This document shows, one piece after another, positions 30,743-63,493 of a stretch of 64,000 bases of DNA; positions within the stretch are counted from its first letter, which is position 1; each line of letters begins with the position of its first letter. Source of the DNA: an uncultured Planctomycetales bacterium (lineage in GTDB: Bacteria > Omnitrophota > Gorgyraeia > Zapsychrales > JANLHA01). The notes under the pieces are model-generated. The model had not been told where the DNA came from. It saw only the letters and a program-made list of their open reading frames with translations, and did no database searches. Made by a program: the position numbers and the translations under genes. The DNA is taken from the NCBI GenBank assembly GCA_964374105.1, contig CAYJXI010000008.1, positions 2,589 through 66,588 on the forward strand, given 5' to 3'.

Positions 30743-30746
30743 CTCT

Positions 30747-36511: not shown

Positions 36512-36518
36512 GTCTTTA

Positions 36519-44955: not shown

Positions 44956-44960
44956 AAAAG

Positions 44961-46481: not shown

Positions 46482-46518
46482 TTATATTTAAGATTAAGAT
46501 AGATCTTTTGGAAAAATA

Positions 46519-47730
46519 TTAATGAAAACAGAAAATGGCTTTCATGAAGACGAGGGTATGTTGGTATATTCTTAAAATATGGTATTTGATTCTGATAACG
46601 AGATCAGGATTCTTATTGGTATATTTGCAACTTCTTGCGCCTCCCCTATCAGAATAAGCAAAGCCGACAAAATAATCAAAATGCCTTAATACCGCTAACG
46701 TCTTAAAGAAATCCCGCCAGCCTTCTCCCGGAAAGCCAACCATGGCATGTGTAGAAATGAAAGTTTTGGGAGATATTTTCTTAATATGTTTAATAACATT
46801 CATCACTTCACGGATATCATAATTTCGATTCATCTCGCTCAGGACTCTGTTAGAACCGCTTTGGATGGGGATGTAGACAGAATTAAGATCAATATTTCTG
46901 AAGGCATCTAGAAGTTCATCTCGGTACCGTAAAATCCAAAAGGGGTTTGTTTCTCCAAGATCAATTTTCCGGTTCCCGAATCTATTCGATATGGTTTTCA
47001 GCAGTCTGGGCAAGTTTAGGCCTATGTCCAGGCCATAAGGTCCGCAGTCATCCGACACGAGGTGGATCGTTTTGGCAAAATCACTGTTATTTTCTATGTC
47101 CTGAATGATGTGTTCCGGATTTCTGGATTTGACTTTTCCGATCGCTTTTTTGATAACACAGAAATTGCAGTTTGACGCGCAGCCGGTATTGATTTGTATA
47201 TCGAATTTGTTTTTGAAGTAAACTTGGTCAAATAGTTTCCGGAAGTATGATTTTTTCCCAAATACTCTTAAGAAGATTTTGCATACGATAAAATTATAGA
47301 ATTTAGAGAAACCGCTGTCCTGAATTTTGTAATAATCCTGAAATTCATCATGCATGCAGTATTCAGTCACATCATCGAACCTCACCTGGTTAAAGAATAT
47401 TGGGTCAAGTTCCTTAAGCTCGTTTATTAGCAAAATGTTTCCTGGGATGCTTGTTATAGCTTGTCCGTTTATTTTATTTAAGCAGCCGATCGAAATCACC
47501 TTAGATTTGTTTCTACTATAGAATTGAAACAGATTAACTGTTGCCATTTCAAATTCTTTCATGAACCCGCAGGTGTTGACGATTACATAATCGGCATGGC
47601 TGAAATTGCTTACAAAAGTATGCCCGTTTCGTTTTAGATAAGAATACACCTTGCTTAAGGTGATTGTATTCGGTTTGCACGCTTTGTTGGAACTGTCTAA
47701 ATAGATTTTAAATTTTGCCATGGGTGTCAT
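46519..47730 (-). CDS. Methylthiotransferase-family radical SAM (MiaB/RimO-like, non-canonical)
   Basis: MTTase N-domain Cys triad (KAC, VIVNTCGF, IGCL). Radical SAM CASNCNFCVIKKAIGKVKSRNPEHIIQDIE matches CxxxCxFCxI...RSR...I..E of MTTases. Confidence 0.55.
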   Translation of the reverse strand: MTPMAKFKIYLDSSNKACKPNTITLSKVYSYLKRNGHTFVSNFSHADYVIVNTCGFMKEFEMATVNLFQFYSRNKSKVISIGCLNKINGQAITSIPGNILLINELKELDPIFFNQVRFDDVTEYCMHDEFQDYYKIQDSGFSKFYNFIVCKIFLRVFGKKSYFRKLFDQVYFKNKFDIQINTGCASNCNFCVIKKAIGKVKSRNPEHIIQDIENNSDFAKTIHLVSDDCGPYGLDIGLNLPRLLKTISNRFGNRKIDLGETNPFWILRYRDELLDAFRNIDLNSVYIPIQSGSNRVLSEMNRNYDIREVMNVIKHIKKISPKTFISTHAMVGFPGEGWRDFFKTLAVLRHFDYFVGFAYSDRGGARSCKYTNKNPDLVIRIKYHILRIYQHTLVFMKAIFCFH

Positions 47731-47742
47731 CTTTATTTCGTA

Positions 47743-48780
47743 TTACAGTGAACTCATTTTGGCATTCACGAATCTTTTTCGTTTGCTTATGAGAATCGGC
47801 TGATATTTGCTTCTCTTATCCAATGAAAATAAAATACCACCTATAAATGACAAGAACATAACAATATGTGTTGTGAGAAAGACAAAGGGGAGGACCCCGA
47901 ATACAACGGGATGCTTTTTAAGATATTTCCATGAAAATCCAATTGCTAAGGAAAGATAGGATATTCCTGCAATACATAATGTAGTATGTAAATGCTGAGG
48001 GAAGAGCAGACCTATTCCTGATAGGATCCCGAAAACGACGATGGCCAGTTTTATAAATGGCATTTTCCCATAGATTTCGTTGAATAAGACAGCGTTAATC
48101 CCTGTGTTAAAACGGGTAATCATTTTCTTTTTCAAATAACCAACAGGAAATGGCTCTACAATATGGTGGACATTTAACTCAGGGATGACGAAGAAAGAAT
48201 ATCCCAAATACGAAGCAATATAAAAAAATTCAATGTCATCGATGTAATAAGAAGAAGTCTCGTTAAACCCTCCCACGGCTTCCCATACGCTTCTTTTGAT
48301 AAGACAGTTGCATAAGGGCATGTTATAAAAATTCACTTTTCTGACGTTTTCGGCATGGGTGTCTTCAAATCCTTCCAGAAAGAAAGAATCATTAGCCGCG
48401 CCTGCTAACTGATAAGGTAATGAGGCTTTTTCATCAAAATGAGAGAGGGGACCGCAAACGCCATCGCACGGATGATCATGTAAACTTTTTATGGCCTGGT
48501 CAACCCAATTACGGGCCACAATAATATCGTCATCGAGAAATGCAACGAGTTCTGCCTGTGTGTGCTTTACACCTCTATTCCTGCGCATGCTTGGATGGAG
48601 AGTGTTTTCTATCAGGTGGGTGATTTTAACATCTGTTGGGGGCAGATCGATTATGTAGTCGTCTGCCATCACCAAGATGATTTCAAATTGGTTATGATCG
48701 TATGTTTGGTGAATTAATTGTTTCAGGCAGTGAGATAATCTCTGCGGTCTTGTGACAGGTATGATGATCCCCAGTTTCAT
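47743..48780 (-). CDS. GT2-family glycosyltransferase with C-terminal TM helices
   Basis: MKLGIIIPVTRPQRLSHCL...VAFLDDDIIV (DxD) and C-terminal hydrophobic segments. Confidence 0.65.
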   Translation of the reverse strand: MKLGIIIPVTRPQRLSHCLKQLIHQTYDHNQFEIILVMADDYIIDLPPTDVKITHLIENTLHPSMRRNRGVKHTQAELVAFLDDDIIVARNWVDQAIKSLHDHPCDGVCGPLSHFDEKASLPYQLAGAANDSFFLEGFEDTHAENVRKVNFYNMPLCNCLIKRSVWEAVGGFNETSSYYIDDIEFFYIASYLGYSFFVIPELNVHHIVEPFPVGYLKKKMITRFNTGINAVLFNEIYGKMPFIKLAIVVFGILSGIGLLFPQHLHTTLCIAGISYLSLAIGFSWKYLKKHPVVFGVLPFVFLTTHIVMFLSFIGGILFSLDKRSKYQPILISKRKRFVNAKMSSL

Positions 48781-50213
48781 TGTCCATTCTTTGAATCAGC
48801 AGGAACCCATTTTAACTTTAACCATAGATTGCAAATGATATCCCTCAAGATAAGCGGATTACCTATTTTGTTCGGAGAATAGAGTCGCAGACTTTTCACA
48901 ATGCGAAAGACCCTGATAGGGTTTGAATACCACTTGCGGTAAAAACTTTTTATCGCTCTGCTGGCTTCATCATTGCTATTATAAATAATATTTTGGTAGG
49001 AGCGGTCCTCAAAAACGGCTTCATTATCTTCATTTAAAGATTGATCTTTATACAATCCTGTTGTCGGTAAGGCTATATATTTTGACAAAGTTACGAAATC
49101 CGTATCTAATTCAAAGGCCAAATCGAGTGTTTTTTTGTAGTCTTCTTTATTTTCCCAAGGGAAACCTATCAGAAGAAATATTTCCGTGGCGACTCCATGC
49201 TTTTTAGCCAACGCAACGCCTTTTTTGACATCATCGAGCGAAAGGTCTTTTTTGAGCCGTTCAATCGTTTTGGGGCTGCCTGATTCGGGCGCAAAATTAA
49301 CCACCCACAAGCCGGCTTCTTTTAGCTTCCGCATTGTTTCTTCATCAATAAAATCTGCTCTGATACCGCTCGTAAAATGCAGCTTTACCTTTATGCCCCT
49401 TCGTATAATTTCATCGCAAATTTCTATGACCCTATTTTTATTCAACGTAAAATTCTCATCAACAATGCCGATATCCTTGATGCCAAATTTTGTTACTTGC
49501 CATTCTATCTCGTCAACCACATTGTTGGGAGATCGTGTTCTAAAATTCCTTCCCATATTATGATAACAAAATGTGCACTCATAAGGACATCCCCGCGATG
49601 TGATGATGTAAGAAGACGGCCATTCTCTGGAAAACATGATGTGATACTTTTTTATGTCAATTTTGTCTAAAGCTGGGAATGGCAAGGGGTCGAGGTCCTG
49701 CATCCAATCCCTTGTTCCGGTGAAATTCAGCCGATCATTTTCTCGATAATATAATCCTTTAATTTCTGGCTGTGGTTTTCTGGAAAGATACTCATAAAAT
49801 GTTTGCTCGGCCTCACCGACTACGACCACATCAATATATTTTTCTCGCATGAGGATCTTGGGGTAAGCGCTGGCAAACGGGCCTCCAAAGATTATTCTCG
49901 TGTCAGGTTTCTTTTGCTTTATGGAGAGCGCTGTGGTCAGACTTTTTTTAATATTATTAATGGTCACGCTAAAACCAATGGTGTCATATTTTGTGTAGTC
50001 AACATGTTTTGAGTGATCAACATTGCGATCAAGGAAATCACCAGGTATTCCCCTGTGTTCCAGAAATGACAAGATATACAGAGGTCCTAGGTGGATGGCC
50101 GTTCCCAAATATTCCGGTTTAGCAGGGGATTCAACAACTAAGAGTAATTTAGTTTGAGTAGCTGTCCCCCTAGGCCTATTACCCTTTTCTAATAAAACAT
50201 TTTCATGCTGCAT
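48777..50213 (-). CDS. B12-binding radical SAM, tandem paralog A
   Basis: SRGCPYECTFCYHNMGRNFRTRSP. The start at 50213 (MQHENV..., aligning KLLLVVESP to KILIVVERS of its paralogs) is preferred over the 50267 ORF-track start, which overlaps the upstream gene by 37 nt. Confidence 0.7.
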   Translation of the reverse strand: MQHENVLLEKGNRPRGTATQTKLLLVVESPAKPEYLGTAIHLGPLYILSFLEHRGIPGDFLDRNVDHSKHVDYTKYDTIGFSVTINNIKKSLTTALSIKQKKPDTRIIFGGPFASAYPKILMREKYIDVVVVGEAEQTFYEYLSRKPQPEIKGLYYRENDRLNFTGTRDWMQDLDPLPFPALDKIDIKKYHIMFSREWPSSYIITSRGCPYECTFCYHNMGRNFRTRSPNNVVDEIEWQVTKFGIKDIGIVDENFTLNKNRVIEICDEIIRRGIKVKLHFTSGIRADFIDEETMRKLKEAGLWVVNFAPESGSPKTIERLKKDLSLDDVKKGVALAKKHGVATEIFLLIGFPWENKEDYKKTLDLAFELDTDFVTLSKYIALPTTGLYKDQSLNEDNEAVFEDRSYQNIIYNSNDEASRAIKSFYRKWYSNPIRVFRIVKSLRLYSPNKIGNPLILRDIICNLWLKLKWVPADSKNGQ

Positions 50214-50230
50214 TGAACAGGCTTTCAAGG

Positions 50231-51613
50231 TTATTTCTCCCTGATGGGTAATCCTAATTTCATCCACGAATTAACCATCATAATTTTGAACATATTGGGG
50301 TTAAATAATTTGTTGGGTGAATAAAGATTCAATATTCTTGCCAAACGCATCACCCTGCGTGGATCTGCATACCATCTACGATAAAAGTCTTTTACCATTT
50401 TAGAGGCTTCATCGTCTCCTTGGTAGGCGTAATTATTGTACAATCGATCGCTAAAGAGGTTGATTTTATCTTCTTGTGTCAATTCACTTGGTTGCAGTTG
50501 TGTGCCTGGAAAGGGGATATATCTGTTCAATGAGACAAAATCAACATCTAATTCATACGGCACGGCAAGGGTTTGTCTATAATCTTCCTTGGATTCCCAA
50601 GGCAGGCCTAACAAGAGGAATATTTCCGTTGCAACGCCATATTTTTTGGCTATCCCTATTGCCTTTTGCATATCGTTGCTTTTAAATCCCTTTTTCAATC
50701 GCTCGATTGTCTGAGGGCTACCTGATTCTGGCGCAAAATTAATAACCCATAAGCCGGCGTCCCGTAATTTCCTCATCATTTCATCATCGACGAAGTCTGC
50801 TCTTACACCATTGGAGAACTGCAATTTTACTTTAATCTTCCTTTGGATGATCTCATCGCAAATTTCAATGACTCTTTTGCGGTCAAGGGTAAAATTGTCA
50901 TCAACAATCCCGATCTCTTTGACACCTAAAGAATTGATTTGCCATTCGATTTCATCGACAACATTCTGGGGGGATCGTACCCGCCATTTTTTCCCCATAT
51001 TATGAAAACAAAATGTGCAAGGATAGGGGCAACCCCGGGTTGTCATAATATAGGAAATAGGAGAGGCCTTTGCAAAAAAGCTATGGTATTTTTTAATGTT
51101 GGTTTTATATAGCGCGGGGAAGGGGAGAGCATCGAGATCTTTGATCCACGGCCTGTTTCCCGTAAAGTGGACATTCCCATTTTCCCGAAAGTATAAGCCC
51201 AGAATATCTTTTTTATTTTTCCGGATGACGCATTCATAAAATGTCTCTTCGCCTTCTCCAATGACAACAGCATCAATATACTCTTCCTGCATGAGAAGCT
51301 GCGGATAGGAGCTGGCGAAGGGCCCTCCAAAAATGATTTGAGTTTCGGGTTTATTACGTTTAATGGATTGTGCCGTGAAGAGGCTCCCTTTTATGTTATT
51401 GACGTTTGTGCTGAAGCCCACTATCTCATAGTTGGCGAGATCAATAATTTTAGTAGGATCAACCGTTCGGTCTAAAAAGTCTCCGTTGATTCCTTTTTGT
51501 TCAAGATAGGAAAGAAGATACAAGGGTCCTAACCAAAGCTGATTTTCCTGACAGTAGGGTAGCGTGCTCCTTTCCACAACAATCAATATCTTAGGCGCAG
51601 CATTTTTAATCAC
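50231..51613 (-). CDS. B12-binding radical SAM, tandem paralog B
   Basis: TRGCPYPCTFCFHNMGKKWRVRSP. About 75% aa identity to paralog C by eye. Confidence 0.75.
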   Translation of the reverse strand: MIKNAAPKILIVVERSTLPYCQENQLWLGPLYLLSYLEQKGINGDFLDRTVDPTKIIDLANYEIVGFSTNVNNIKGSLFTAQSIKRNKPETQIIFGGPFASSYPQLLMQEEYIDAVVIGEGEETFYECVIRKNKKDILGLYFRENGNVHFTGNRPWIKDLDALPFPALYKTNIKKYHSFFAKASPISYIMTTRGCPYPCTFCFHNMGKKWRVRSPQNVVDEIEWQINSLGVKEIGIVDDNFTLDRKRVIEICDEIIQRKIKVKLQFSNGVRADFVDDEMMRKLRDAGLWVINFAPESGSPQTIERLKKGFKSNDMQKAIGIAKKYGVATEIFLLLGLPWESKEDYRQTLAVPYELDVDFVSLNRYIPFPGTQLQPSELTQEDKINLFSDRLYNNYAYQGDDEASKMVKDFYRRWYADPRRVMRLARILNLYSPNKLFNPNMFKIMMVNSWMKLGLPIREK

Positions 51614-51618
51614 GGCAT

Positions 51619-53028
51619 TTATCCTTTCACATAGTTGCGATATAGATTACTCTGCCAAGGCAGTGAGCCTAATTTCAGCCACGAATTTTCCATGATATTT
51701 TTTAACATATCAGGGTTAAATAGTTTTTTGGGGGAATAAAGATTCAACATCTTGGCTATGCGTAGAACTCGTCGCGGGCTAGAATACCATTTGCCATAAA
51801 AGGCTCGCATCATTTGCGACACTTCATCCTTTCTATCATAGGCGAAACTATTGTATAATCGGTCGTTAAAAAGGTTTTCTTTATCTTCTTGCGTCAATTC
51901 GTTTGGCTGAAGGGGTGTGCCTGGAAATGGAATGTATCTGTGTAATCCAACAAAATCCACATCTAATTCATACGGTAAGGCAAGGGTTTGTTGATAATCT
52001 TCTTTGGTTTCCCAAGGGAAGCCTAGCATGAGAAATATTTCCGTGGCGACACCATATTTTTTGGCGATAGCTACTGCCTTTTGCATATCATCTTCTTTAA
52101 ATCCTTTTTTCAAACGTTCAATCGTCTGAGGGCTTCCTGATTCAGGAGCAAAATTGATCACCCATAAACCAGCATCGCTTAATTTTTTCATCATTTCATC
52201 ATCAACAAAATCAGCTCTAACCCCATTGGTGAACTGTAATTTGACGTTAATCTTCCTTCGAATGATCTCATCGCAAACGTCGATCACTCTTTTGCGGTCA
52301 AGGGTGAAGTTGTCATCAATAATGCCGATTTCTTTGATACTTAAGGAATTGACCTGCCATTCGATTTCATCAACGACGTTTTGAGGGGAACGTGCACGCC
52401 ATTTTTTTCCCATGTTGTGAAAGCAAAATGTACAAGGGTAAGGGCAACCCCGGGTTGTGATAAGGTAGGAAATAGGTGAGGTTTTTGCAGAAAGGTTTTG
52501 GTATTTTTGAATTTTGGTCTTATGTAATGCCGGGAAGGGAAGAGAATCAAGGTTTTTGATCCAAGGCCTGGGACCCGTAAAATGGACACGGCCACATCCC
52601 CGATAATATAAGCCTTGAATCTCACTTTCTTTCTTCCCGCAGACAAATTCATAAAAACTTTCTTCGCCTTCGCCCACCACAGCCGCATCGATATATTCTT
52701 CTCCCATAAGAAGCTGTGGATAGGAACTGGCAAACGGTCCTCCAAAGACGACTTTAATATCAGGTTTAATACGTTTGATTTTTTGCGCTGTTGCAAGGCT
52801 TAATTTTATGTTATTGACATTCGCGCTGAAACCCACAACATCGTATGATGAATAGTCAATAACTCTTAATGGCTCAACGCTTCGATCAACAAAATCCCCG
52901 CTGATTCCTTTTTGTTCGAGATAAGAGAGGATATACAAAGGGCCTAGCCAAAACTGAGATCCTTGATAGGATGGTGCCGTACTTCTCTCAACGATAATCA
53001 ATATTTTAGGCTGAGAATGGTCAATCAT
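51619..53028 (-). CDS. B12-binding radical SAM, tandem paralog C
   Basis: TRGCPYPCTFCFHNMGKKWRARSP. Confidence 0.75.
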   Translation of the reverse strand: MIDHSQPKILIIVERSTAPSYQGSQFWLGPLYILSYLEQKGISGDFVDRSVEPLRVIDYSSYDVVGFSANVNNIKLSLATAQKIKRIKPDIKVVFGGPFASSYPQLLMGEEYIDAAVVGEGEESFYEFVCGKKESEIQGLYYRGCGRVHFTGPRPWIKNLDSLPFPALHKTKIQKYQNLSAKTSPISYLITTRGCPYPCTFCFHNMGKKWRARSPQNVVDEIEWQVNSLSIKEIGIIDDNFTLDRKRVIDVCDEIIRRKINVKLQFTNGVRADFVDDEMMKKLSDAGLWVINFAPESGSPQTIERLKKGFKEDDMQKAVAIAKKYGVATEIFLMLGFPWETKEDYQQTLALPYELDVDFVGLHRYIPFPGTPLQPNELTQEDKENLFNDRLYNSFAYDRKDEVSQMMRAFYGKWYSSPRRVLRIAKMLNLYSPKKLFNPDMLKNIMENSWLKLGSLPWQSNLYRNYVKG

Positions 53029-53033
53029 GGGGT

Positions 53034-54380
53034 TTATCCTTTTGCATAAAAGACTTCCAGGCCGTACTTAACAAATCTCAAGAATGATTTTATACCAATT
53101 TTATTAATGATTTCCATTATCTTGAGAGGTCTTGAATAGAAGCGGTAGTAGGCATTTCTGTATATCCTTTCGAGAAAATCATCACTTTGTTTGTCATAGT
53201 AAGTGGTCATGGATTCCTGGATCCGGCCGCTTAAGGCAGGATTTTTCTCGTAAACTTCGGTTCCTTTAAAGGGTACAAGTTTGCTTAAATCCATCATGAG
53301 CGGGTCAAGCTCAAAGGCAAATTCGACCGTCTTTTTCATATCTTCCTCTGTCTGAAAGGGGAGCCCGATAAGGAAAAATCCATAGAAGACAATATCCAAT
53401 TCCTTACACCATTTTGCCGCGTGACGGAACTGGTCTATTTTTGCCGCCTTCTTGATTTTTTTGAGGCTTTCGGCATCACCGACTTCCGGGGCAATGGCGA
53501 TCTTCCAGCATCCGGCTTCTTTCATGGCCTGAAGCAGTTCTTTGGTCATTTTGTTGACGGTGATACCGTTGGCCAGTTGCCAGTCAAGTTTGATCCCTTT
53601 TTTTCTTTTCAATTCACATATTTGATAAACACGGTCGATGTCATAAGTGAAATTATCGTCTTCAATAGAAATTTCCTTGACACCAATTTCTTTTTCAAGC
53701 CATTCCATTTCCGCCACAATATTTTCCGGTGAGCGTGAACGCCATTTTCTGCCTGTTACTTTTTGGCTGCAGAAGATGCAGTGCGAAGGGCACCCGCGGG
53801 AGGTGACCATGGAGACCAGCGGTCTTTTTTTGTAAGAATTGATGTAATATTTGTCAACGCTGATCATGTCATAGGCCGGGAAAGGCAGGGTGTCCAACTC
53901 CCAGACGGGATCATATTTGTTGATAATTTTAGAGATTTTTGTTTCGTTTTGCCTGAATTCTTCCATGGGGCCGTTTTTGGCCGTTAAGAAATCCAGGATC
54001 ACTTTTTCTGCCTCATACTGGATAATGTAATCGATAGAAGCCTGGTCATACTCCGCGGGCTCGATGGTAGGGTGAGGGCCGCCGACAAGGGTAACGACAT
54101 CTTTGTCAAGCTCTTTGATAGCCGAGGCCAATTTAATAGTCATATTCCGGTTTGAAAAATTTGAAGACAACCCAACGGTGGTCGGTTTGTATTCATTCAC
54201 AATTGAGGCTAAATCTTTTTCCCAATTCCTGCTTATATTTAAATCCACAACCTTGACATTGACACCATGTTGTCTTAGGTAGGAGGCGATGTATAAAATA
54301 CCCAGCGGGGGTTGGATGGAAATATAATATAGCTTATCCGAAGGGGGATTGATTAATAAAACCTTTTCATTTTTATCCAT
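53034..54380 (-). CDS. B12-binding radical SAM (HpnJ-like position in a GT2-deacetylase-rSAM triad)
   Basis: SRGCPSHCIFCSQKVTGRKWRSRSP and an N-terminal B12 domain. Confidence 0.7.
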   Translation of the reverse strand: MDKNEKVLLINPPSDKLYYISIQPPLGILYIASYLRQHGVNVKVVDLNISRNWEKDLASIVNEYKPTTVGLSSNFSNRNMTIKLASAIKELDKDVVTLVGGPHPTIEPAEYDQASIDYIIQYEAEKVILDFLTAKNGPMEEFRQNETKISKIINKYDPVWELDTLPFPAYDMISVDKYYINSYKKRPLVSMVTSRGCPSHCIFCSQKVTGRKWRSRSPENIVAEMEWLEKEIGVKEISIEDDNFTYDIDRVYQICELKRKKGIKLDWQLANGITVNKMTKELLQAMKEAGCWKIAIAPEVGDAESLKKIKKAAKIDQFRHAAKWCKELDIVFYGFFLIGLPFQTEEDMKKTVEFAFELDPLMMDLSKLVPFKGTEVYEKNPALSGRIQESMTTYYDKQSDDFLERIYRNAYYRFYSRPLKIMEIINKIGIKSFLRFVKYGLEVFYAKG

Positions 54381-55242
54381 AGAAGCTCCGATAATTTATT
54401 AAATTGACGTTCAATTGATGGATTAAATGGAAAATTTCTGGATTGGTTAAGGCCTCGCGTTCCGTCTGCCACCCGTAATTCCAGTGTTGATAGGGGCCCG
54501 CCAAGAGTTTGTTCCCTGGATGACACATCAATTCGGTCACTCCCTGGTTTAGATATGATAAATATTTGTTTAAATTTTTCTCATTCATTTTTCCGGAAGC
54601 ACCAAGTCCTAAAAAATAATCTGCACGCTTCCCATCAAGATTATTTTTTTCTATAGGAATGAAATTTAAAAGACTCCTTATACAGAGCCATTTCAGGAAA
54701 TGGCTAAAAGAAGCACATCCGGCGATGTTTTCTTCAAGAGGATAACGGACAAAATGAATGCGGTATTGTTGGCATACCCGTTTCACGATACTCCATAGGC
54801 TTGGGAATATATGGATGTGCTGATGGCTATCGAGATGCGTTGGAAGTAAACCAGCATCCAGAACTTTTTTGATTTGGGCTTCCCACTCATGCTCAATCTC
54901 AGCAAGGCAGATCTTCCTTGTAAGCAGTCTCAAGATAACCTCCCAGCAGTTCTCATAAAATCGATTTGCCCGATTCAGAAGAGTTGGGATATATCGCTGT
55001 GGTAAAACGGGGGAAGTATGTGTTAAAGCCAAATGGACTCCCACCCCCAAACCAATATTTTCCTTGATGAGCTTCAGCGCATGATCAAAGGCCTCACCGG
55101 TCGCAAGGAGGGAGACACTGGTGACAATGCCTTTTTGGTGCGATTCAATAATGCCATTATTAATTTCTTCGGTTAAACCGAAATCATCGGCATTAACAAT
55201 GAGATATTTTTTCGTTTGTTTTATCGAGTCAAGAGTCATCAA
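54373..55242 (-). CDS. YdjC/ChbG-family carbohydrate deacetylase (HpnK-like)
   Basis: YLIVNADDFGLTEEINNGIIESHQKGIVTSVSLLATG and THLDSHQHIH metal-binding motif. Confidence 0.65.
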   Translation of the reverse strand: MMTLDSIKQTKKYLIVNADDFGLTEEINNGIIESHQKGIVTSVSLLATGEAFDHALKLIKENIGLGVGVHLALTHTSPVLPQRYIPTLLNRANRFYENCWEVILRLLTRKICLAEIEHEWEAQIKKVLDAGLLPTHLDSHQHIHIFPSLWSIVKRVCQQYRIHFVRYPLEENIAGCASFSHFLKWLCIRSLLNFIPIEKNNLDGKRADYFLGLGASGKMNEKNLNKYLSYLNQGVTELMCHPGNKLLAGPYQHWNYGWQTEREALTNPEIFHLIHQLNVNLINYRSFYG

Positions 55243-55253
55243 TAGCTATAAAT

Positions 55254-55982
55254 CTAATAATAGAGCGATCTGATTTCGGGATAATATTTTATTATTTCGT
55301 ATATGGTTCTCGAAATGTTACTGAGAGACGCAAGATGTGATCGTCCATATTTTCGTTGGTTAAAGGTGACCGGTATATTGATGACTTTAAAACCATTGTA
55401 ATAACTTTTTAGTAAAAATTCAGCGCTGATAAATGATCCGTTAGCGGAAAGGGAGATTTTATCTAACACGTCTCGCTTAAATATCGTCATCGCAAAATTG
55501 ATGTCATTTGTTTTATAACCAAAGATAATCCTTATGAGGAAATTATAAGTGCGAGAATACACCGTACGCAAAAAAGATTCTCTCTTCCCAACTCTATATC
55601 CATGGACAACATCTGTTTCCTCAAGTAGCGTAACGGCATCTTTTAATATGGAAAAATCAAAAGGCATATCGACATCGGTATAGACGATAGTGTTTTTCTT
55701 CGCCTTATTAAATCCTGTTTTCAATGCCGCCCCCAAGCCTTTATTTTTGTCATGTTGAAAAACTTTTATTCGAGAATCCCCAGCCGCAAGCTTGAGTGCA
55801 ATGGTTTCTGATCCATCAAAGCTGGCATCATTGACGAGAATGATTTCATAGTCGGCCTCCAGGGAATTCAACACATTTTGGGCTTTGGCTATGGTCATTT
55901 GTAAATATTCAATTTCATTATAGAAGGGCATAACCAGAGAAAGGGATGTTTTCATTTTATCTTCCATTTGGGAAAAATTCAT
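55254..55982 (-). CDS. GT2-family glycosyltransferase (HpnI-like position)
   Basis: LSLVMPFYNEIEYL...EIILVNDASFDGS...YTDVDMPFD. Confidence 0.7.
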   Translation of the reverse strand: MNFSQMEDKMKTSLSLVMPFYNEIEYLQMTIAKAQNVLNSLEADYEIILVNDASFDGSETIALKLAAGDSRIKVFQHDKNKGLGAALKTGFNKAKKNTIVYTDVDMPFDFSILKDAVTLLEETDVVHGYRVGKRESFLRTVYSRTYNFLIRIIFGYKTNDINFAMTIFKRDVLDKISLSANGSFISAEFLLKSYYNGFKVINIPVTFNQRKYGRSHLASLSNISRTIYEIIKYYPEIRSLYY

Positions 55983-56016
55983 AATAAACGAACAGGATGA
56001 AAACTTTTCTAAATGA

Positions 56017-57462
56017 CTAATTTCTTGCTAATAGGTATTCATAGATTCGCTTAAAAATAAAATAAATCTGATAAGGCGATTTGATCTTACGTAATAGCTT
56101 AATAAGGATATGCCATCGCAAATAAAACCGCAGGTAGGCTCGTCTGACTATCGTTCGCTGGATATTTTTTTCTTTATTGTCTTGAAATCGATTGGTGATG
56201 TGAGCGGGAGAGGAAAGCCGTTCGTAATTGAGCTGATTTACGGCATCCTGACCATAGACGCGATTGATCACAGATCCCCCCGGGAGCGGCAGAAAATTGC
56301 TAAAATCAGCTACGTCTAACGGTAAGGAGCGAGCAAATTGTATTGTCTTATTCATATCGGCTTCTGTCTCACCGGGAAACCCCAGTATAAAAAACCCAGT
56401 GACATCAAAATCGAATTTTTTAATGATCTCCATTTTGGAAACGATCTCTTTAAGGCGCAATCCTTTTCTCATTCTATTTAAGGTTTCTTGGGAACCAGAT
56501 TCTATGGCGACAAATAATGAATAACATCCGGCTTGTCTCATTTTTTCTAGCAAAGGTTCATTCAGGCTGTCAATCCGAACACCATTGGGACAACTCCAGG
56601 CAATGTTTACCTTTTGATCTAAAAGCACATTACAAAACGATGTAACAAATTCATTATCTTCGGTGAAATCATCATCCAAAAAATGGAACTCTTCAATGTT
56701 ATATTCTTTTTTAAGATGAAGGATCTCCTGGATAATATGGGGGATGCTTCTTTTCCTGATTTTTCTCCCCGTCACGGTATGGGCAGCACAAAAGGAACAA
56801 TAATGAGGACATCCCCTCGTTGCAAAGAGAGGGGCAAACCGGCTTTTTTTATAAAAAACCCCTTGGCAGGTTTTAAAATATTTTTTAGGGTCAACCACAT
56901 CCCAGGCTGGGAATCCAAAAGAATCGAGATTATCTTCAAACGATTGGGGGTTGATGCGTACTTGGTGGTCGTCACGATAAATAAGCCCGGGGATATGTCT
57001 TAATCTGTCTGGACGATAGGTCCCATTCGTTTTAACCGATTCTAAAAGTTGAGGGAAGCCGATTTCCGCTTCCCCTTTGAAGGCAAAGTCCACGTTATCC
57101 AAAAATTGCATTGTATGTTCCGCAGCAGCGGAAGAGTGTGGTCCTCCTACCACGGTCAATATATCTTTTGAAACTCCTTTTTTTATTGCCTCGGTGACAC
57201 GTTTGACCATAGGCACATCATGCGATAACATGCTTAGTCCAATAACATTCGGTTTTTTTTCCTTAATGATTGTTATAAGCTCAGCCAAGGAAAAATTGTC
57301 GCAAACACAATCCAAGATTTGGGTTTTTTCACAATGATTTTTGATGGATGTAGCCAGGTAACCTAACCCAAGGGGAGGCATGATATGAAAGACAGCCTGT
57401 TGAGGTTGAGGGGGTTTAACTAACAGTACTTTCATTTCATTAAGGCAGATGTGTATAGACAA
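56017..57462 (-). CDS. B12-binding (class B) radical SAM protein
   Basis: TRGCPHYCSFCAAHTVTGRKIRKRS. Confidence 0.75.
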   Translation of the reverse strand: MSIHICLNEMKVLLVKPPQPQQAVFHIMPPLGLGYLATSIKNHCEKTQILDCVCDNFSLAELITIIKEKKPNVIGLSMLSHDVPMVKRVTEAIKKGVSKDILTVVGGPHSSAAAEHTMQFLDNVDFAFKGEAEIGFPQLLESVKTNGTYRPDRLRHIPGLIYRDDHQVRINPQSFEDNLDSFGFPAWDVVDPKKYFKTCQGVFYKKSRFAPLFATRGCPHYCSFCAAHTVTGRKIRKRSIPHIIQEILHLKKEYNIEEFHFLDDDFTEDNEFVTSFCNVLLDQKVNIAWSCPNGVRIDSLNEPLLEKMRQAGCYSLFVAIESGSQETLNRMRKGLRLKEIVSKMEIIKKFDFDVTGFFILGFPGETEADMNKTIQFARSLPLDVADFSNFLPLPGGSVINRVYGQDAVNQLNYERLSSPAHITNRFQDNKEKNIQRTIVRRAYLRFYLRWHILIKLLRKIKSPYQIYFIFKRIYEYLLARN

Positions 57463-57583
57463 AAAATTAGGACATTCGGATAAAAGTGTTTAACAACGCA
57501 ACCGACTCGTCTTAAAACTTAATATGAATATAACTTAAAACTAATTCTAATTCAAGGGAAAAAGCGGCGTTCAATTGATCAGA

Positions 57584-58954
57584 TTAATGTTGGATTGTCG
57601 ATAGAATCTCATTTGCGCGGCCGACTAACATCTTGTCGTTTGTTTTGGATAAGACCCAATAGCATCTATCAATAGCCCAATCATATTCGCCGGCCAGCCG
57701 GTAGATCTCAGCTTTGTTTAAATAGTAAACATACAACTCTTTTTTAGGAAGTGCAAATTGACTTTCCGGTAAATTGATAAAATAAATGGAATGGAGAAGA
57801 AAATAAATCATCAAACCCGTTATAACGAATTTAAAGAAACGGTGCTTTTGTAAAATATCGTTGAGCATATAAGAAAATAAGATAACACCCGGAAACAGGG
57901 TCATCCCTGCCCACCAATGATCATCCAGTAAGGAATAAGATCCCGCAATAAAGCTGGTTATCGTAAACACAAAGCCAAACATAAATAGAGAAAATTTTAT
58001 TAACTCAGTTTTATTTTTTTGTTTAAAACAATAAAAAAATCCCCAAAAAATTAATACCCCTAAAGGCCAATGAATCACAGGCAATTCATTGCTAAGCGCG
58101 CTTAAGAATATTAATTTGCCATCAGGTGCGATAAAAGAGATTGAATCGATATTTGAATCCCAAATAAACAAATGAAAATGTTCATTGAGAATAGGAAGCA
58201 ACTCAGCAAAATATAAATAAAATGATCTGAGGCTAACCCCCAAATCGAAGAAATGTTCACTGCTAATTTTGCTGAATTTATTCTCGTAACTCCAAAGCAA
58301 ATGGGGTGAGAAAATGAGGAACATGATCAAAAGCGAAAAATAAAATTCCTTACGTCTCAGCCAAAACCTGTGGTTTCTATTGACTATTAAATAAAAAAGG
58401 AGGGTTGAGGCAAATAAGACCATCCCCTCGTAAGCCAAACAACCAAACCCAATGAAAATAGCCGTAAACATCACATATTTTGCCTTCTGTGTATGCAGTC
58501 CTCGAAAAAAAGTATACAAAGCCAAAGGCATAAAAAAGAAAAATAAAGTCCCTTCATACGCAAAGCGTGTTACCCCGATATGATATTGGCTAAATGAGAG
58601 GAAATAAAGGGTCAAAAAAGCTGTTTTAGTTTTCAGATTTTCTTCTACGAGCTTGAATATAAAAAAAAGGCCCAAGGTCCCTAAGGCAACAAATAGCAGA
58701 CGAATTTCTAGCTGACCTGTACCGAAGAGAGCAACGCCTAGTTTAATGATATAAGTAGAGAGTATAGGGTTTTGTAAATCCTTATCCCCAATAGGGAGTT
58801 TCCAATGATCTCGAGCCAATGAGATATTTTTAATAAAATCGATGAGTTCTTGTTCATCAGGGATAAAAGGAACGAGACAGGATGTATAAAGCCGAAAAAG
58901 GCCGGCTATAATTAAGAGAAGGGATATTAGAAAAAACCGGGGCTTTCTTCTCAA
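57584..58954 (-). CDS. GT-C fold glycosyltransferase, ArnT/PMT_2-like
   Basis: FIPDEQELIDF...PILSTYIIKLGVALFGTGQLEIRLLFVALG matches the PMT_2 DE...KPPL...RL pattern. Multi-TM. Confidence 0.5.
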   Translation of the reverse strand: MRRKPRFFLISLLLIIAGLFRLYTSCLVPFIPDEQELIDFIKNISLARDHWKLPIGDKDLQNPILSTYIIKLGVALFGTGQLEIRLLFVALGTLGLFFIFKLVEENLKTKTAFLTLYFLSFSQYHIGVTRFAYEGTLFFFFMPLALYTFFRGLHTQKAKYVMFTAIFIGFGCLAYEGMVLFASTLLFYLIVNRNHRFWLRRKEFYFSLLIMFLIFSPHLLWSYENKFSKISSEHFFDLGVSLRSFYLYFAELLPILNEHFHLFIWDSNIDSISFIAPDGKLIFLSALSNELPVIHWPLGVLIFWGFFYCFKQKNKTELIKFSLFMFGFVFTITSFIAGSYSLLDDHWWAGMTLFPGVILFSYMLNDILQKHRFFKFVITGLMIYFLLHSIYFINLPESQFALPKKELYVYYLNKAEIYRLAGEYDWAIDRCYWVLSKTNDKMLVGRANEILSTIQH

Positions 58955-59367
58955 CTTTTAAACTCTTTAAATTTATTCATAGCAAAACTCATCGGAATTT
59001 TTTTGGAAAAAATAATAGAAGGATGGAGTCTTAACACTCAGAATGTCTGTAATTAATAGCTTAAAGTTCGGGGAAGGAGAAACTGTCTTTTCCAAAATCA
59101 GATTATCAAAGAAACAGTATGAAGCCAAGAGAAAAATTTATTCTTATTACAAAAGGTTAATACTAAACATCTAAAAATATGTTATTATAAAAACGCTTTT
59201 AGGCTAAGAACAACCTTTATTTCTGTTTGAATAATCATTTAAAATATTAGATACTTTTAATAGAAAAATGTATTAAGCCCGCCGTTAGTCAAGGGATTTT
59301 TAAGTGAGAGCCGGCTTATTGATGAAAATTTTTCAGACGAAGCCCTTAAACTCAACACATTATAGAA

Positions 59368-60831
59368 ATGAAAAGAAAGATTAGCTGTGTCCTGTTGCTT
59401 AGACTAAGTTCTGCTATCCTTAAGGAGGACAAACATCCCCGAGGTAGCCGCTTCCCGTATATGTTGAAGTATATGGAAGCGCTTCTTAAAAAGAATCCGG
59501 ACTGCAACGTTAAACTGATGGATTTAATGATTACACCGATGGAATCGAGGGCGTTGTTGAGTAGGGTACAGGATTGGACGCCGGATCTGATTGTCATTTA
59601 TTCAACCACCCGTGATCATTCGGCGGTTTTGGAGTTCTCTTCGTCTGTCAAGAAAGTTTGTCATCCAATTATTGTGAGCGTAGGGCAGGATCCTACCGCC
59701 AGACCCCTCCAATATCTCTTTGAAAACTCTCCAATTGATATTGTATTACCTGGTGACTCGGAATTAGAATTGTTAAAGGTCATTAAGGAGCTTAACAATG
59801 GAGCTGATCTTAAAAATTTTAAGCAATTTTACCTTAAACAAAAGACACTTATGATCTCTGAACTGGATGATCTTCCTTTCCCTGATGTCACTGGGGAGGA
59901 ATTGAAAGCTTATTATCACATCTACCCTATTGCTCTCAATCAGCGGTTGATCTGGGGACATATCCTAAGTTCTCGGGGATGTCCTTATCCCTGTATGTTT
60001 TGTACCGAGATGATCCGGGAGACCACCGGGGATAAGCCGCGATTCCGCAGCGCCGGTAATGTGGTCGATGAAATAGAATATTTGGCGGGAAAGGGCGTTA
60101 ATATTATTATTTTTGACGATGACAATTTCACGACTTCGAAAAGTCACGTTCAAAATATCTGTGCCGAGATGAGGAAAAGGGATTTAAGGATGCCTTGGGT
60201 GGCACATGCCAGGGTTGATAACCTTACCCATGATCTTTTGGAAGTCATGAAGGAAACGGGTTGCCTATTACTGCGGTTTGGCATTGAGTCAGGATCCCAT
60301 CGGATCATTAAACTATTGGAAAAGACAACGAGGGAGGATTGGGCACCGCAGACAAAAAAAGTATTTCGTTCCTGTCAAGAGTTAGGCATAGCAACAGCGG
60401 CCCTTTTTATGGTGGGATCGCCAACCGAAACAAAGGAGGAAATCGAAGAGAGTATCCGATTTGCCAAGGAACTCGATCCGGATGTCATTCAAGTATCATT
60501 TTTTACCTTTTATCCGGATACAAAAGCTTTCAAACGTCTGGAAAATTACGATAACGGTTATGATTTTGCCAAAATGTACCATTTTTCTACCTCGGATCCC
60601 GATTTCAATTTTAGCGAAGTGGATAACGATACCTTACAAAAACTACAAAATATTTTTTACAAAACGATATTGCTGAATCCGAGGTATATTATCAGACATC
60701 TTACAAAATACGGTCTTTTTTATTTATACAACCCTATGACTTTCCGTTCTCTGGCCCGGATCGGTAGCTATCTAGGGAGCAAAAAGGAGATTCGTTCGGG
60801 AGCTCAACTTTGCCATAGCGGTGCTCACTAA
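59368..60831 (+). CDS. B12-binding (class B) radical SAM protein (start uncertain)
   Basis: SRGCPYPCMFCTEMIRETTGDKPRFRSA. Confidence 0.7.
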   Translation: MKRKISCVLLLRLSSAILKEDKHPRGSRFPYMLKYMEALLKKNPDCNVKLMDLMITPMESRALLSRVQDWTPDLIVIYSTTRDHSAVLEFSSSVKKVCHPIIVSVGQDPTARPLQYLFENSPIDIVLPGDSELELLKVIKELNNGADLKNFKQFYLKQKTLMISELDDLPFPDVTGEELKAYYHIYPIALNQRLIWGHILSSRGCPYPCMFCTEMIRETTGDKPRFRSAGNVVDEIEYLAGKGVNIIIFDDDNFTTSKSHVQNICAEMRKRDLRMPWVAHARVDNLTHDLLEVMKETGCLLLRFGIESGSHRIIKLLEKTTREDWAPQTKKVFRSCQELGIATAALFMVGSPTETKEEIEESIRFAKELDPDVIQVSFFTFYPDTKAFKRLENYDNGYDFAKMYHFSTSDPDFNFSEVDNDTLQKLQNIFYKTILLNPRYIIRHLTKYGLFYLYNPMTFRSLARIGSYLGSKKEIRSGAQLCHSGAH

Positions 60832-60844
60832 TATAAGGAATAAC

Positions 60845-62107
60845 ATGTTTGCCAAGAAAGCCTACCCGCGTCATACAATCAACGGAAGTATAAAGTTGTT
60901 TGGACTGGCGTGTCAGATGATCTTTAAGGGGAGGGCTCAGGCAGGAGATCATATCCAGCGTTTTGAACAGAAATTTGCTGAGTTTATCGGCACTCAATAC
61001 GCCATCGGAGTGGAATCAGCAAGAAAAGGGCTTTATTTAATACTCAAAAGCCAGCGTTTTGATAGAGGCGATGAAGTGATCATGCCGGACTATACCTTCA
61101 AGGCGTTACCGGTTGCGGTTATTGCCTGTGGTCTAAAACCCGTGTTTGTAGATGTCGATCGGTATACATATAATATCAACCCTACCTTGATTGAAGAGAA
61201 AATCACCAAGCGCACAAAGGCGCTCATTATTACGCATATGTTTGGTCAGCCCGTTGATATGGCTGCTATCTTGGCGTTAGCGCGGAAACATCAACTCTGC
61301 GTTATTGAAGATTGTGCTCATGCGTGCGGTGGAAAATATCAAAATCAGCGGCTGGGTTCTTTAGCGGATGCGGCGGTTTTCAGCTTTAAAATGGGAAAAA
61401 ATCTTCCTTGTTTTGGCGGAGGGATGATCACCACAAACGATACGCGCCTCTATACAAACCTTAAAGAAATGATTGCAAAATTTCCCTATCCCCAAAAGTG
61501 GGATTTGATAAAAGATGTTGCGAGTACTTTTATATTTTACTTAAGCACGCATAAAAATATCTTCCCTTTGGTCACTTATCCGATCCTTCGTCTTTTAGAT
61601 TGGGTGGGGTCCGACTTCAGTGATAGTCACATCGAGGAATCCGTAGATATAGAGAAGAGCATTAACTCTCTCCAAAACCAAACCCGGTTGGCCAATCTTC
61701 AGGCGGCGGTGGGCCTTGAGCAATTGTTGCGATTGGATGACCTCAATTGTAAGCTAAAAGTGAACGCCCAACAGCTTATTAAGGAATTGCGCAATGTTAA
61801 GAATATTTCTGTCCTGGTTGAAAATGCAGAAAACCTCCCGACCTATTTATATTTTCGAATTCAGGTCCCTCAGGTGAGGCCTTTTCGCAAAAAGTTGCTC
61901 TCTAAAGGGGTGGATACCAAACGGGATGATATGAGTGCGTGTTCCAATCTCAAGGTTTTTTCAGAATACCGACAGTCATGTCCTGTCGCAGAAAGACTGA
62001 ATGTGAGGAGTATCGAAATCCCCAACAACCCCTTTCTCAACGAAGATGACATTGGATACATCGCGCAGCAGGTTATGCATACTGCCGATGAAATTTATGG
62101 ACCGTGA
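60845..62107 (+). CDS. DegT/DnrJ/EryC1-family PLP-dependent aminotransferase (Lys intact)
   Basis: AVFSFKMGKNLPCFGGGMITT and EDCAHACGG. ATG at 60845 with a TAAGGAA RBS; the ORF-track GTG at 60821 overlaps the upstream stop. Confidence 0.7.
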   Translation: MFAKKAYPRHTINGSIKLFGLACQMIFKGRAQAGDHIQRFEQKFAEFIGTQYAIGVESARKGLYLILKSQRFDRGDEVIMPDYTFKALPVAVIACGLKPVFVDVDRYTYNINPTLIEEKITKRTKALIITHMFGQPVDMAAILALARKHQLCVIEDCAHACGGKYQNQRLGSLADAAVFSFKMGKNLPCFGGGMITTNDTRLYTNLKEMIAKFPYPQKWDLIKDVASTFIFYLSTHKNIFPLVTYPILRLLDWVGSDFSDSHIEESVDIEKSINSLQNQTRLANLQAAVGLEQLLRLDDLNCKLKVNAQQLIKELRNVKNISVLVENAENLPTYLYFRIQVPQVRPFRKKLLSKGVDTKRDDMSACSNLKVFSEYRQSCPVAERLNVRSIEIPNNPFLNEDDIGYIAQQVMHTADEIYGP

Positions 62108-62194
62108 AGATATGTCAGGGGTCGGGGAGTTTTTTCCCTCCCTTGGTAGCACTGCAGGCAGGCTCTCCCATCGAGGGGAAGGAAAAGATAGATT

Positions 62195-63493
62195 ATGAAA
62201 ATACTATTATGCAAACCCTATTGGCCTTACCCCTATGGCAGAGGCGAACATACGTACAACCGTATTTGGCCGCCGTTATGCTTGGCTAATTGTGCCGCTC
62301 TATTGGAAAGACAGAACCATGTTGTCAAAATTTTAGACGCGCATGCTTTGCGTATTAAACCGCAGAAAATCAAATTCTTTATTCAGAATTTTGATAAGAT
62401 TTTTATTACTTCATCGTCTCTGGATCGATGGCAATGTCCCAATATTGACATTGCCATGTTTCTTCAGACTGTTAGATATATCAGAGAAGTGACCAACGAA
62501 ATCTATATTATGGGTTACCACGGAACCATCGATCCCGCAAATATTCTTGTCCAAACAAAAGCCAAAGCGGTTATCAGAGGGGAAGCGGAATACACGATTG
62601 AAGAGATCTGTCAAAATCAAAATTTAAGCGATATCAAAGGTATTACCTATCAAACTAACGGTAAAATCATTTCCACCTCGGATAGAGAAAATGCTGATTT
62701 AAAAAAACTTCCTGTCCCTGCCTTTCATTTATTAGATACGAGCAAATATGCTTATGAAATACTGGGAAAAAATTTTACCTTGTTTGAAATCAGCCGGGGA
62801 TGTAAATGGGGGTGTAAATTTTGCAATAAACTTATGTATGAGCCAAACTTAAGAGTTAAATCCGCCAACCAGGTTATAGAGGAAATTAAGGTTGCCATCG
62901 AAGATAATGGCATCAAAACAGGTTATTTTATTGATTTGGAATTCCTCTCAAACAAAAAAACAGTTTCCGAAATCTGTGATTTTCTTACAACGAGCCAATA
63001 TGATTTTCGATGGTGTTGCCAAACGCGCGCCGATTCTCTAGATGAGGAAATTGTTAGGAAGATGAAAAAAGCCGGCTGTGAACTCATTCATGTGGGAGTT
63101 GAAAGCGGGATTCAGAAATTTCTTGATTTATCCGGCAAACACACCACAGAAGATAAACTAAAAAAGGGAGTACAGATGTGTGAAAAAGCAGGTATCAAAA
63201 CGCTTGCCTTTTTTATGTTTGGATTTCGCGGAGAAACAGCTAAAGACAGGGAAGAAATATTTCAATTTGCCCGGAAATTAAATACCAATTTTGTTTCATT
63301 TCATAAAGTGTATCCTTATAGGAAGAGCGATATTTATTTATCCGATATCCATTCCAATAAAGAAATAGACAATCATATTCTTAAAGTATATCTGAAATAT
63401 TATTTAAGGATCGCCTATTTGAAGAAATCCGATATCATGACGTTGATCCGAAGTTTTAAATTATTCTTAGGGCGGCTAGGCACTTTGACATGA
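62195..63493 (+). CDS. B12-binding (class B) radical SAM protein
   Basis: SRGCKWGCKFC, and MKILLCKPYWPY B12-domain-type N-terminus. Confidence 0.7.
   Translation: MKILLCKPYWPYPYGRGEHTYNRIWPPLCLANCAALLERQNHVVKILDAHALRIKPQKIKFFIQNFDKIFITSSSLDRWQCPNIDIAMFLQTVRYIREVTNEIYIMGYHGTIDPANILVQTKAKAVIRGEAEYTIEEICQNQNLSDIKGITYQTNGKIISTSDRENADLKKLPVPAFHLLDTSKYAYEILGKNFTLFEISRGCKWGCKFCNKLMYEPNLRVKSANQVIEEIKVAIEDNGIKTGYFIDLEFLSNKKTVSEICDFLTTSQYDFRWCCQTRADSLDEEIVRKMKKAGCELIHVGVESGIQKFLDLSGKHTTEDKLKKGVQMCEKAGIKTLAFFMFGFRGETAKDREEIFQFARKLNTNFVSFHKVYPYRKSDIYLSDIHSNKEIDNHILKVYLKYYLRIAYLKKSDIMTLIRSFKLFLGRLGTLT

Follow-up and report, generated by a model that had tools for sequence, protein, structure and literature searches.

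The 64-kb window analyzed here (the whole stretch of DNA, 64,000 nucleotides from an uncultured bacterium) is an envelope-glycan locus. It contains a compact core of four minus-strand genes that encode two vitamin B12-binding radical S-adenosylmethionine (SAM) enzymes (rSAMs), a family 2 glycosyltransferase (GT2), and a YdjC-family carbohydrate deacetylase, preceded by a gene for a GT-C fold membrane glycosyltransferase. An earlier reading of this DNA (the original prediction) had placed an rSAM, a YdjC protein, a GT2, and a second rSAM here and had likened the first three to the hopanoid side-chain enzymes HpnJ, HpnK, and HpnI. All four minus-strand open reading frames (ORFs) exist, and Pfam assigns them to the predicted classes at scores that clear its gathering cut-offs. 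In the direction of transcription, the genes are as follows:

57584-58954, minus strand: GT-C fold membrane glycosyltransferase (PMT_2/ArnT-like), first gene of the operon; Pfam PMT_2 (PF13231), 88.2 bits against a cut-off of 26.1; about six hydrophobic segments.
56017-57462, minus strand: B12-binding rSAM (rSAM_56017), upstream member of the core; Pfam B12-binding (PF02310) and Radical_SAM (PF04055), both above cut-off.
55254-55982, minus strand: GT2 of 242 aa with no predicted transmembrane (TM) segment; Pfam Glycos_transf_2, 92.4 bits.
54373-55242, minus strand: YdjC-family carbohydrate deacetylase with no TM segment; Pfam YdjC (PF04794), 220.9 bits against a cut-off of 29.7.
53034-54380, minus strand: B12-binding rSAM (rSAM_53034); Pfam B12-binding, 73 bits, and Radical_SAM, 89 bits; CxxxCxxC motif at C196/C200/C203 (CPSHCIFC).

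Both rSAM_53034 and rSAM_56017 combine a B12-binding domain with a radical SAM core, the architecture of class B rSAMs, and are predicted to bind cobalamin, and the product of 57584-58954 has the PF13231 gathering score and the polytopic topology of a GT-C enzyme. The minus strand from 39948 to 58954 is a single densely packed string of genes. Public gene calls start the YdjC gene at the ATG at 55239, the likely start, to give a protein of 288 aa, and start rSAM_56017 27 nt further inside, to give 472 aa. The rSAM_53034 gene begins before the YdjC gene ends, with an overlap of 8 nt (ATGGATAA) and a GGAG upstream. The remaining core junctions are gaps of 5 to 34 nt (11 to 14 nt from GT2 to YdjC and 34 nt from rSAM_56017 to GT2), and about 120 nt separate the GT-C gene from rSAM_56017. 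Translational coupling, which had been predicted for the genes together, is thus apparent at the YdjC/rSAM_53034 junction but not at the others. A scan of positions 52500-59600 found no consensus promoters or terminators above the shuffled expectation.

The host is probably a member of the Omnitrophota, as judged from the glyceraldehyde-3-phosphate dehydrogenase (GAPDH) sequence encoded at 18857-19903, which is 80 to 86% identical to its relatives, every named one of which is labeled Candidatus Omnitrophica or Omnitrophota. Identical copies of window proteins are present in public assemblies. The closest locus in the genome collection, L006 (CAYHZK010000013.1), is fully syntenic and is titled "uncultured Planctomycetales bacterium"; given that all named GAPDH relatives are from the Omnitrophota, the taxonomic label of this metagenome-assembled genome may be imprecise. 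A link to the heavily methylated S-layer O-glycan of the anammox bacterium Kuenenia (Brocadiales) was considered and dropped, since PMC5088730 describes no gene cluster and the GAPDH points to the Omnitrophota.

Conservation of the core was assessed in six metagenomic lineages represented by the window and the loci of the nearest YdjC relatives (L003, L006/L092, L091, L093, and L094). The order rSAM_56017-type, GT2, YdjC, rSAM_53034-type is invariant across the six lineages, with the genes present as orthologs, and the 8-nt ATGnnTAA overlap of YdjC and rSAM is likewise kept. This recurrence of order and overlap indicates that the arrangement is not due to chance, and the contiguity that had been noticed in the window alone is that of a conserved four-gene unit. 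The rSAMs of the core are better conserved than the deacetylase: YdjC identity is 46 to 61% and rSAM identity 56 to 85%, with orthologs of rSAM_56017 (56 to 76%) at the equivalent position in L003, L006, and L091 to L094, and orthologs of rSAM_53034 (60 to 85%) retaining the overlap. In L003, L006, and L092 the core has an ortholog of the GT-C gene upstream, and a divergent rSAM-DegT-rSAM set (59368-63493) adjoins the core in L001, L003, L006, and L092 as well as in the window. The downstream string 39948-48780 is syntenic with L003 and L091. The flanks of the core otherwise vary among relatives and include genes for PMT_2, YfhO, and DUF2079 proteins and, in some, a flippase-like LPG_synthase_TM protein. 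In L091 an insertion sequence element (rve integrase and HTH_Tnp_1; 6629-7701) lies just upstream of the core, at the position of PMT_2 in the window. Groupings of rSAM, YdjC, and GT2 genes that are not orthologous to the core and differ in gene order occur in three distant loci: L019, labeled Eubacteriales, has rSAM-YdjC-GT2-PMT_2, and L018 and L042 have GT2-methyltransferase-rSAM-YdjC, which in L042 adjoins LptF/G.

The GT2 looks like a soluble polyprenyl-phosphate glycosyltransferase of the DPM1/ArnC/GtrB type, a prediction that derives from its closest matches. Among 12 matches to sequences in the PDB, the top seven are DPMS (Pyrococcus, 5mlz), ArnC (9hwj, 9bhc, and 8vxh), and GtrB (5ekp), and its top NCBIfam matches are ArnC (the best), PgfS, dolichyl-phosphate hexose transferase, and PpgS. 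BLASTP aligned it with the GT2 of the YdjC operon of Acinetobacter baumannii at 30% identity (E = 3e-17). As positive controls for the likeness to HpnI, HpnJ, and HpnK, we used the PGAP-annotated hpnI, hpnJ, and hpnK genes from plasmids of Paraburkholderia graminis and Mycetohabitans rhizoxinica, whose products scored 456.1, 843.9, and 407.7 bits, respectively, against NCBIfam cut-offs of 310, 577.6, and 232.6. The GT2 gave no match to the HpnI model TIGR03472 at E ≤ 1e-3, and in BLASTP with three annotated HpnI proteins nothing fell below E = 0.01, the best E value being 0.046. The proposed correspondence of the GT2 to HpnI therefore fails, and the two are unrelated beyond the GT2 fold.

The YdjC protein carries the motifs NADDFG and DSHQHIH, and residues D18, D19, H69, H139, H141, and H143 are invariant in 12 relatives. 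Like the GT2, it has neither a TM segment nor a signal-like N terminus. HpnK is its best-scoring curated NCBIfam model, and to that extent the predicted resemblance stands, but its score on TIGR03473 is 182.2 bits, below the 232.6-bit cut-off, and 196 of 200 neighbor-joining bootstraps exclude it from the clade that the HpnK references and Hpn-context loci form. In the trimmed alignment its identity with HpnK is 26%, compared with 30% for E. coli ChbG and 22% for the A. baumannii YdjC protein, and its match to the last (E = 3e-13 over about 140 aa) is weaker than those to HpnK or ChbG. Genomic context was surveyed in 80 loci kept from a genome-collection scan for YdjC relatives. An ArnC-type GT2 is a neighbor in about 27 of the 80, a GT39-like GT-C protein in about 13, and real Hpn genes in about three; most relatives in the collection have ArnC-type GT2 or GT39 neighbors or none that was recognized. 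Many homologs of the window protein carry the JGI name HpnK, and one of these, P0098, has only 27 to 33% identity to PGAP-annotated HpnK and is a little nearer to ChbG. The HpnK label has probably been over-propagated among YdjC homologs, and an HpnK or HpnJ label on a sub-threshold homolog is no evidence for hopanoid side-chain chemistry.

A similar picture was obtained for the rSAMs. Of the curated models, HpnJ (TIGR03471) scores highest on rSAM_53034, with 187.1 bits against a cut-off of 577.6. The protein is about 28 to 30% identical to annotated HpnJ over some 380 aa, and its identity to its window paralogs is 30 to 32%, so HpnJ (28%) is no closer to it than these are. For rSAM_56017 the best NCBIfam matches are the Sden_1168 P-methyltransferase (187 bits, cut-off 575) and HpnJ (149.9 bits). 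Every one of the 11 B12 rSAMs of the window has HpnJ as its first- or second-ranked curated model, with scores of 117 to 245 bits, and the most HpnJ-like of them, rSAM_41823 (41823-43259; 245 bits), lies outside the four core genes. The resemblance to HpnJ is therefore generic; rSAM_53034 does mirror HpnJ in being a B12 rSAM with HpnJ as its top model, but the likeness is not specific. Its best sequence match in the PDB is AprD4 (6fd2). A neighbor-joining tree of 23 class B rSAMs was star-like, with 20 to 32% identity between groups, and could not assign rSAM_53034 to either HpnJ or the methylases; in this tree it groups with three tandem window paralogs (48777-53028) and L018_5057, and the YdjC-adjacent rSAMs of L018, L019, and L042 make up a clade of their own, nearer to rSAM_41823 and HpnJ. 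The tandem paralogs are 59 to 75% identical to one another and about 30% identical to rSAM_53034, and the copy number of their subfamily varies, with a single copy in L091 and a larger number in L092. Identity and copy number together suggest recent duplication and diversification.

When plasmids were searched by TBLASTN with rSAM_53034 as the query, unannotated "radical SAM protein" genes of glycan loci scored as well as or better than HpnJ. One such locus, on plasmid pDCAR1 of Solidesulfovibrio carbinolicus (Desulfovibrionaceae; L087, NZ_CP026539.1, 54899-84284), contains four rSAM genes among glycosyltransferase, epimerase, acyltransferase, and SIS-domain genes, and one of the four matches rSAM_53034 with an E value of 4e-40, better than that of HpnJ (5e-33). 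Surface-glycan loci with class B rSAMs thus also occur outside the Omnitrophota.

The commonest class B chemistry is C-methylation, and the known sugar-tailoring members include GenK, GenD1, and Fms7 (aminoglycoside C-methylation), MoeK5 (methylation of a lipid-linked sugar), AprD4 (aminosugar deoxygenation), and OxsB (ring contraction). These share the B12-binding and radical SAM architecture of the window enzymes but belong to antibiotic pathways, whereas the window rSAMs sit in an envelope-glycan operon and score far below all NCBIfam family cut-offs of known class B enzymes. The function of class B rSAMs is not predictable from sequence, and most of their functions are unknown (PMC9204698). 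HpnJ, Fom3, MoeK5, and GenK share one similarity-network cluster in which Fom3 and MoeK5 are methylases, and HpnJ, OxsB, and BchE are class B enzymes that are not methylases (PMC9204698).

We propose, with moderate confidence and by analogy with known systems, that the core and the GT-C gene form a conserved envelope-glycan module, a lipid-carrier aminosugar relay of the NaxD/Lgm/Arn type that includes radical SAM tailoring. The soluble DPM1/ArnC-type GT2 (55254-55982) would, at the cytoplasmic face of the membrane, load polyprenyl phosphate with an N-acetylhexosamine, and the cytoplasmic YdjC protein (54373-55242) would free the amine, as NaxD and LgmC do on undecaprenyl-phosphate-linked GalNAc or GlcNAc. 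The two enzymes rSAM_56017 and rSAM_53034 would then tailor the sugar by radical chemistry, whether C-methylation, ring contraction, or an AprD4-like deoxygenation, and after flipping, the PMT_2 GT-C protein (57584-58954) would move the modified aminosugar to an envelope acceptor, which may be lipopolysaccharide, another glycan, or protein. The family assignments, the adjacency and conservation of the core, and the recurrence of GT2 and GT-C genes beside related YdjC genes were observed directly; the carrier, the sugar, the order of the steps, the rSAM chemistry, and the acceptor are inferred. The position of a PMT_2 GT-C gene directly upstream argues for a polyprenyl-phosphate carrier rather than for direct glycosylation of a membrane lipid.

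Precedent for such a relay comes from NaxD, FlmF2, and FlmK of Francisella and A. baumannii and from LgmA, LgmB, and LgmC of Bordetella, with which the window shares the GT2, YdjC, and GT-C families. NaxD is a YdjC-superfamily protein that deacetylates undecaprenyl-phosphate-GalNAc before galactosamine is transferred to lipid A (PMC11279074), and lgmA-C are needed for glucosamine modification of Bordetella lipid A (PMC4993483). The logic of these systems, in which an N-acetylhexosamine on a lipid carrier becomes a hexosamine before periplasmic transfer, is the one we propose for the window. The annotated reference operon of A. baumannii has the order YdjC-GT2-GtrA-GT39, and the same three families are found in one operon in the window, as GT-C, rSAM, GT2, and YdjC; the window GT-C protein matches the A. 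baumannii GT39 protein weakly in BLASTP (E = 1e-4) and has no sequence match in the PDB. The window differs in having two class B rSAM genes in its core, where the A. baumannii operon has none, in lacking a detectable GtrA, and in having a YdjC protein that is only distantly related to that of A. baumannii. The ArnC/ArnD/ArnT and CsbB/GtcA/YfhO relays follow the same general plan, in which a cytoplasmic GT2 loads undecaprenyl phosphate, de-N-acylation is optional, and a periplasmic GT-C enzyme performs the transfer. ArnD belongs to a different deacylase family from YdjC. A YfhO-type protein, identified by orthology, is present in the window (20109-21914) and also in its relatives.

Several observations weigh against the proposed relay. 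The GT2 scores far below the equivalog cut-offs of the polyprenyl-phosphate glycosyltransferases (for ArnC, 75.7 bits against 529), so that its acceptor lipid is a predicted one. The YdjC protein matches HpnK (113 bits) better than it matches the NaxD-type protein of A. baumannii (58 bits, partial), so that orthology with NaxD or LgmC is conjectural. No homolog of a GtrA-type flippase was found in the window, and the rSAMs could instead use nucleotide sugars or the completed glycan as substrates. To our knowledge, no described polyprenyl-phosphate-sugar pathway, the Arn and CsbB relays included, contains a radical SAM step, so the proposal is without precedent in this respect; among the papers listed by a literature search on YdjC together with radical SAM enzymes, none mentioned YdjC. 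What is new here is best filed as a variant of the NaxD/Lgm/Arn-type relay with incorporated radical SAM tailoring. Its interest lies in a compact, conserved unit of four to five genes that ties two class B rSAMs to a well-understood relay (polyprenyl-phosphate GT2, deacetylase, and GT-C) and thereby gives them a defined substrate hypothesis. If the proposal is right, radical chemistry would join the repertoire of bacterial envelope-glycan modification, and an explanation of the surface chemistry of the Omnitrophota, an uncultured phylum, would have a beginning.

A more specific form of the relay, which we put forward only tentatively, is that the B12 rSAMs rebuild the carrier-linked hexosamine, either by ring contraction to an aminocyclitol, of the kind attributed to HpnJ or calditol synthase, or by C-methylation of unactivated carbons, before the GT-C enzyme transfers it to the envelope, and that this chemistry has been greatly expanded in the Omnitrophota, where a single locus holds 11 class B rSAMs. 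Such carrier-linked rebuilding, if true, would amount to a kind of radical tailoring not described before for bacterial surface glycans, carried out on a polyprenyl-phosphate relay.

We consider it unlikely that the rSAMs and YdjC act instead on soluble nucleotide sugars or on assembled polysaccharide, with the GT2 building chains and the GT-C genes being unrelated neighbors such as polymerases or ligases belonging to this glycan locus. The locus is rich in nucleotide-sugar enzymes (three DegT aminotransferases, nucleotidyl transferases, and a GHMP kinase), assignment to the GT2 family alone does not fix the acceptor, and AprD4, the best PDB match of rSAM_53034, works on a soluble aminosugar. 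The best matches of the GT2, however, are specifically to the polyprenyl-phosphate subgroup, and GT-C genes are partnered with the GT2/YdjC pair in unrelated genomes.

An aminocyclitol-type (carbocyclic) head group on a nonhopanoid acceptor, the softer form of the original prediction, overlaps with the proposed relay, differing from it only in the rSAM chemistry, and is compatible with the data; in this account, which we judge rather improbable, one of the rSAMs would contract the hexosamine ring after deacetylation, as has been proposed for HpnJ. It draws on the position of HpnJ as the top curated model of rSAM_53034 (187 bits, 30% identity over about 380 aa), on the conserved YdjC/rSAM overlap, which would suit a free amine as the rSAM substrate, and on the contiguity of hpnI, hpnJ, and hpnK in Mycetohabitans too. 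Class B enzymes that are not methylases exist, and the radical SAM calditol synthase has been cited as an enzyme that contracts a ring on another lipid in an analogous way (PMC13459092). Set against this, rSAM_53034 reaches a third of the HpnJ cut-off, a score that paralogs with other neighbors equal or exceed; the HpnJ pattern is common to all B12 rSAMs of the window, and rSAM_53034 is no nearer to HpnJ than to its paralogs. HpnJ itself clusters with the methylases Fom3 and MoeK5 in a class whose functions sequence does not predict, and its ring-contraction role is a hypothesis drawn from a knockout, with a mechanism yet to be tested (PMC13459092).

It is very improbable that the genes are simply hpnI/J/K of a hopanoid pathway with its cyclase and hpnH genes in another part of the genome, and at the level of protein families this reading is largely refuted. 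What stands of the original comparison is that the enzyme classes equal those of the trio, that GT2, YdjC, and B12 rSAM genes are contiguous in a conserved unit, and that deacetylation is paired with a class B rSAM; squalene-hopene cyclase is also present, at low frequency, in some Omnitrophota (PMC12324291), and the JGI name HpnK is attached to many homologs of the window YdjC protein. Membership in the families is what falls: the GT2 has no similarity to HpnI, and YdjC and rSAM_53034 score below the HpnK and HpnJ cut-offs where true members reach 408 and 844 bits, with YdjC outside the HpnK clade and the JGI-named P0098 itself distant from HpnK. The window also has a GT-C transferase, which the hpn system lacks. 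The absence of a cyclase that had been remarked upon was borne out, as neither squalene-hopene cyclase nor HpnH domains were found in any ORF of at least 150 aa in the 64 kb. HpnI and HpnJ domains have been reported only in genomes with both squalene-hopene cyclase and HpnH, and some HpnK annotations are spurious (PMC12324291). Beyond enzyme class, the module resembles the hopanoid trio less than it does a lipid-carrier aminosugar pathway to which two B12 rSAMs have been added. A secondary-metabolite cluster of aminoglycoside-like or ribosomally made, post-translationally modified peptide (RiPP) type is equally improbable: typical tailoring enzymes are present (tandem class B rSAMs, a SPASM rSAM, DegT aminotransferases, and a deacetylase), and there are sub-threshold matches to RiPP C-methyltransferase and AprD4 models, but we found no precursor-peptide-sized gaps, 2-deoxy-scyllo-inosose synthase, polyketide synthase, or nonribosomal peptide synthetase, and at least seven polytopic GT-C-like proteins, three polyprenyl-phosphate-type GT2s, a GT9 protein, and heptose-pathway genes favor envelope glycans.

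The rest of the window is of similar character to the surroundings of the core. Its glycan genes encode GT9 heptosyltransferase-like, GT4, and GT28-like proteins, a GmhB-like HAD phosphatase, a GHMP kinase, two nucleotidyl transferases, three DegT aminotransferases, and three polyprenyl-phosphate-type GT2s, and its membrane proteins include a flippase-like LPG_synthase_TM protein and at least seven polytopic GT-C-like proteins. Among these glycosyltransferase and sugar-nucleotide genes are 14 rSAM genes in 64 kb (837-63493), 11 of them with a B12-binding domain, a density that is unusual for an envelope-glycan locus. The rSAM genes start at 837, 26313, 28088, 31852, 39948, 41823, 46519, 48777, 50231, 51619, 53034, 56017, 59368, and 62195. 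The genes on either side of the core, assigned by Pfam or by Pfam and NCBIfam, are as follows:

62195-63493, plus strand: B12 rSAM (Pfam).
60821-62107, plus strand: DegT-type sugar aminotransferase (Pfam).
59368-60831, plus strand, divergent from the core: B12 rSAM (Pfam).
51619-53028, 50231-51613, and 48777-50267, minus strand: three tandem B12 rSAM paralogs (Pfam), in the same clade as 53034-54380.
47743-48780, minus strand: membrane GT2 (Pfam/NCBIfam).
46519-47730, minus strand: MiaB-like rSAM (Pfam/NCBIfam).
44961-46481, minus strand: DUF2079 membrane protein (Pfam/NCBIfam).
43417-44955, minus strand: polytopic protein without a family (Pfam/NCBIfam).
41823-43259, minus strand: B12 rSAM (Pfam/NCBIfam).
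41077-41832, minus strand: AglJ/DPM1-like GT2 (Pfam/NCBIfam).
39948-41009, minus strand: SPASM rSAM (Pfam/NCBIfam).

The rSAM at 46519-47730 is MiaB/RimO-like, with a UPF0004 N-terminal domain and no TRAM match, and is conserved within the glycan operon, where an enzyme of methylthiotransferase type is unexpected. A second module (20109-29080) comprises the YfhO-like GT-C protein, an ortholog of a PF09586-annotated protein of L091 (720 bits), together with the flippase-like LPG_synthase_TM protein (21955-22899), two polytopic proteins without a family, a B12 rSAM of 584 aa, and an rSAM of 330 aa. In Burkholderiaceae the HpnL protein, encoded beside hpnIJK, has the annotation of a lysylphosphatidylglycerol synthase domain protein, but phmmer found no direct similarity between HpnL and the 21955-22899 product. 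At 29131-31595, between rSAM genes, a class V aminotransferase (cysteine desulfurase-like, 375 bits) adjoins a 282-aa protein with an SGGxDS PP-loop-like N terminus and no Pfam match; the pair may supply Fe-S clusters or sulfur to the rSAM enzymes. GDSL/SGNH hydrolases are encoded beside rSAM-rich glycan loci in the window (33571-37709, TPR-fused), in L018 (9509-10633), and in the pDCAR1 locus L087 (3795-5486).

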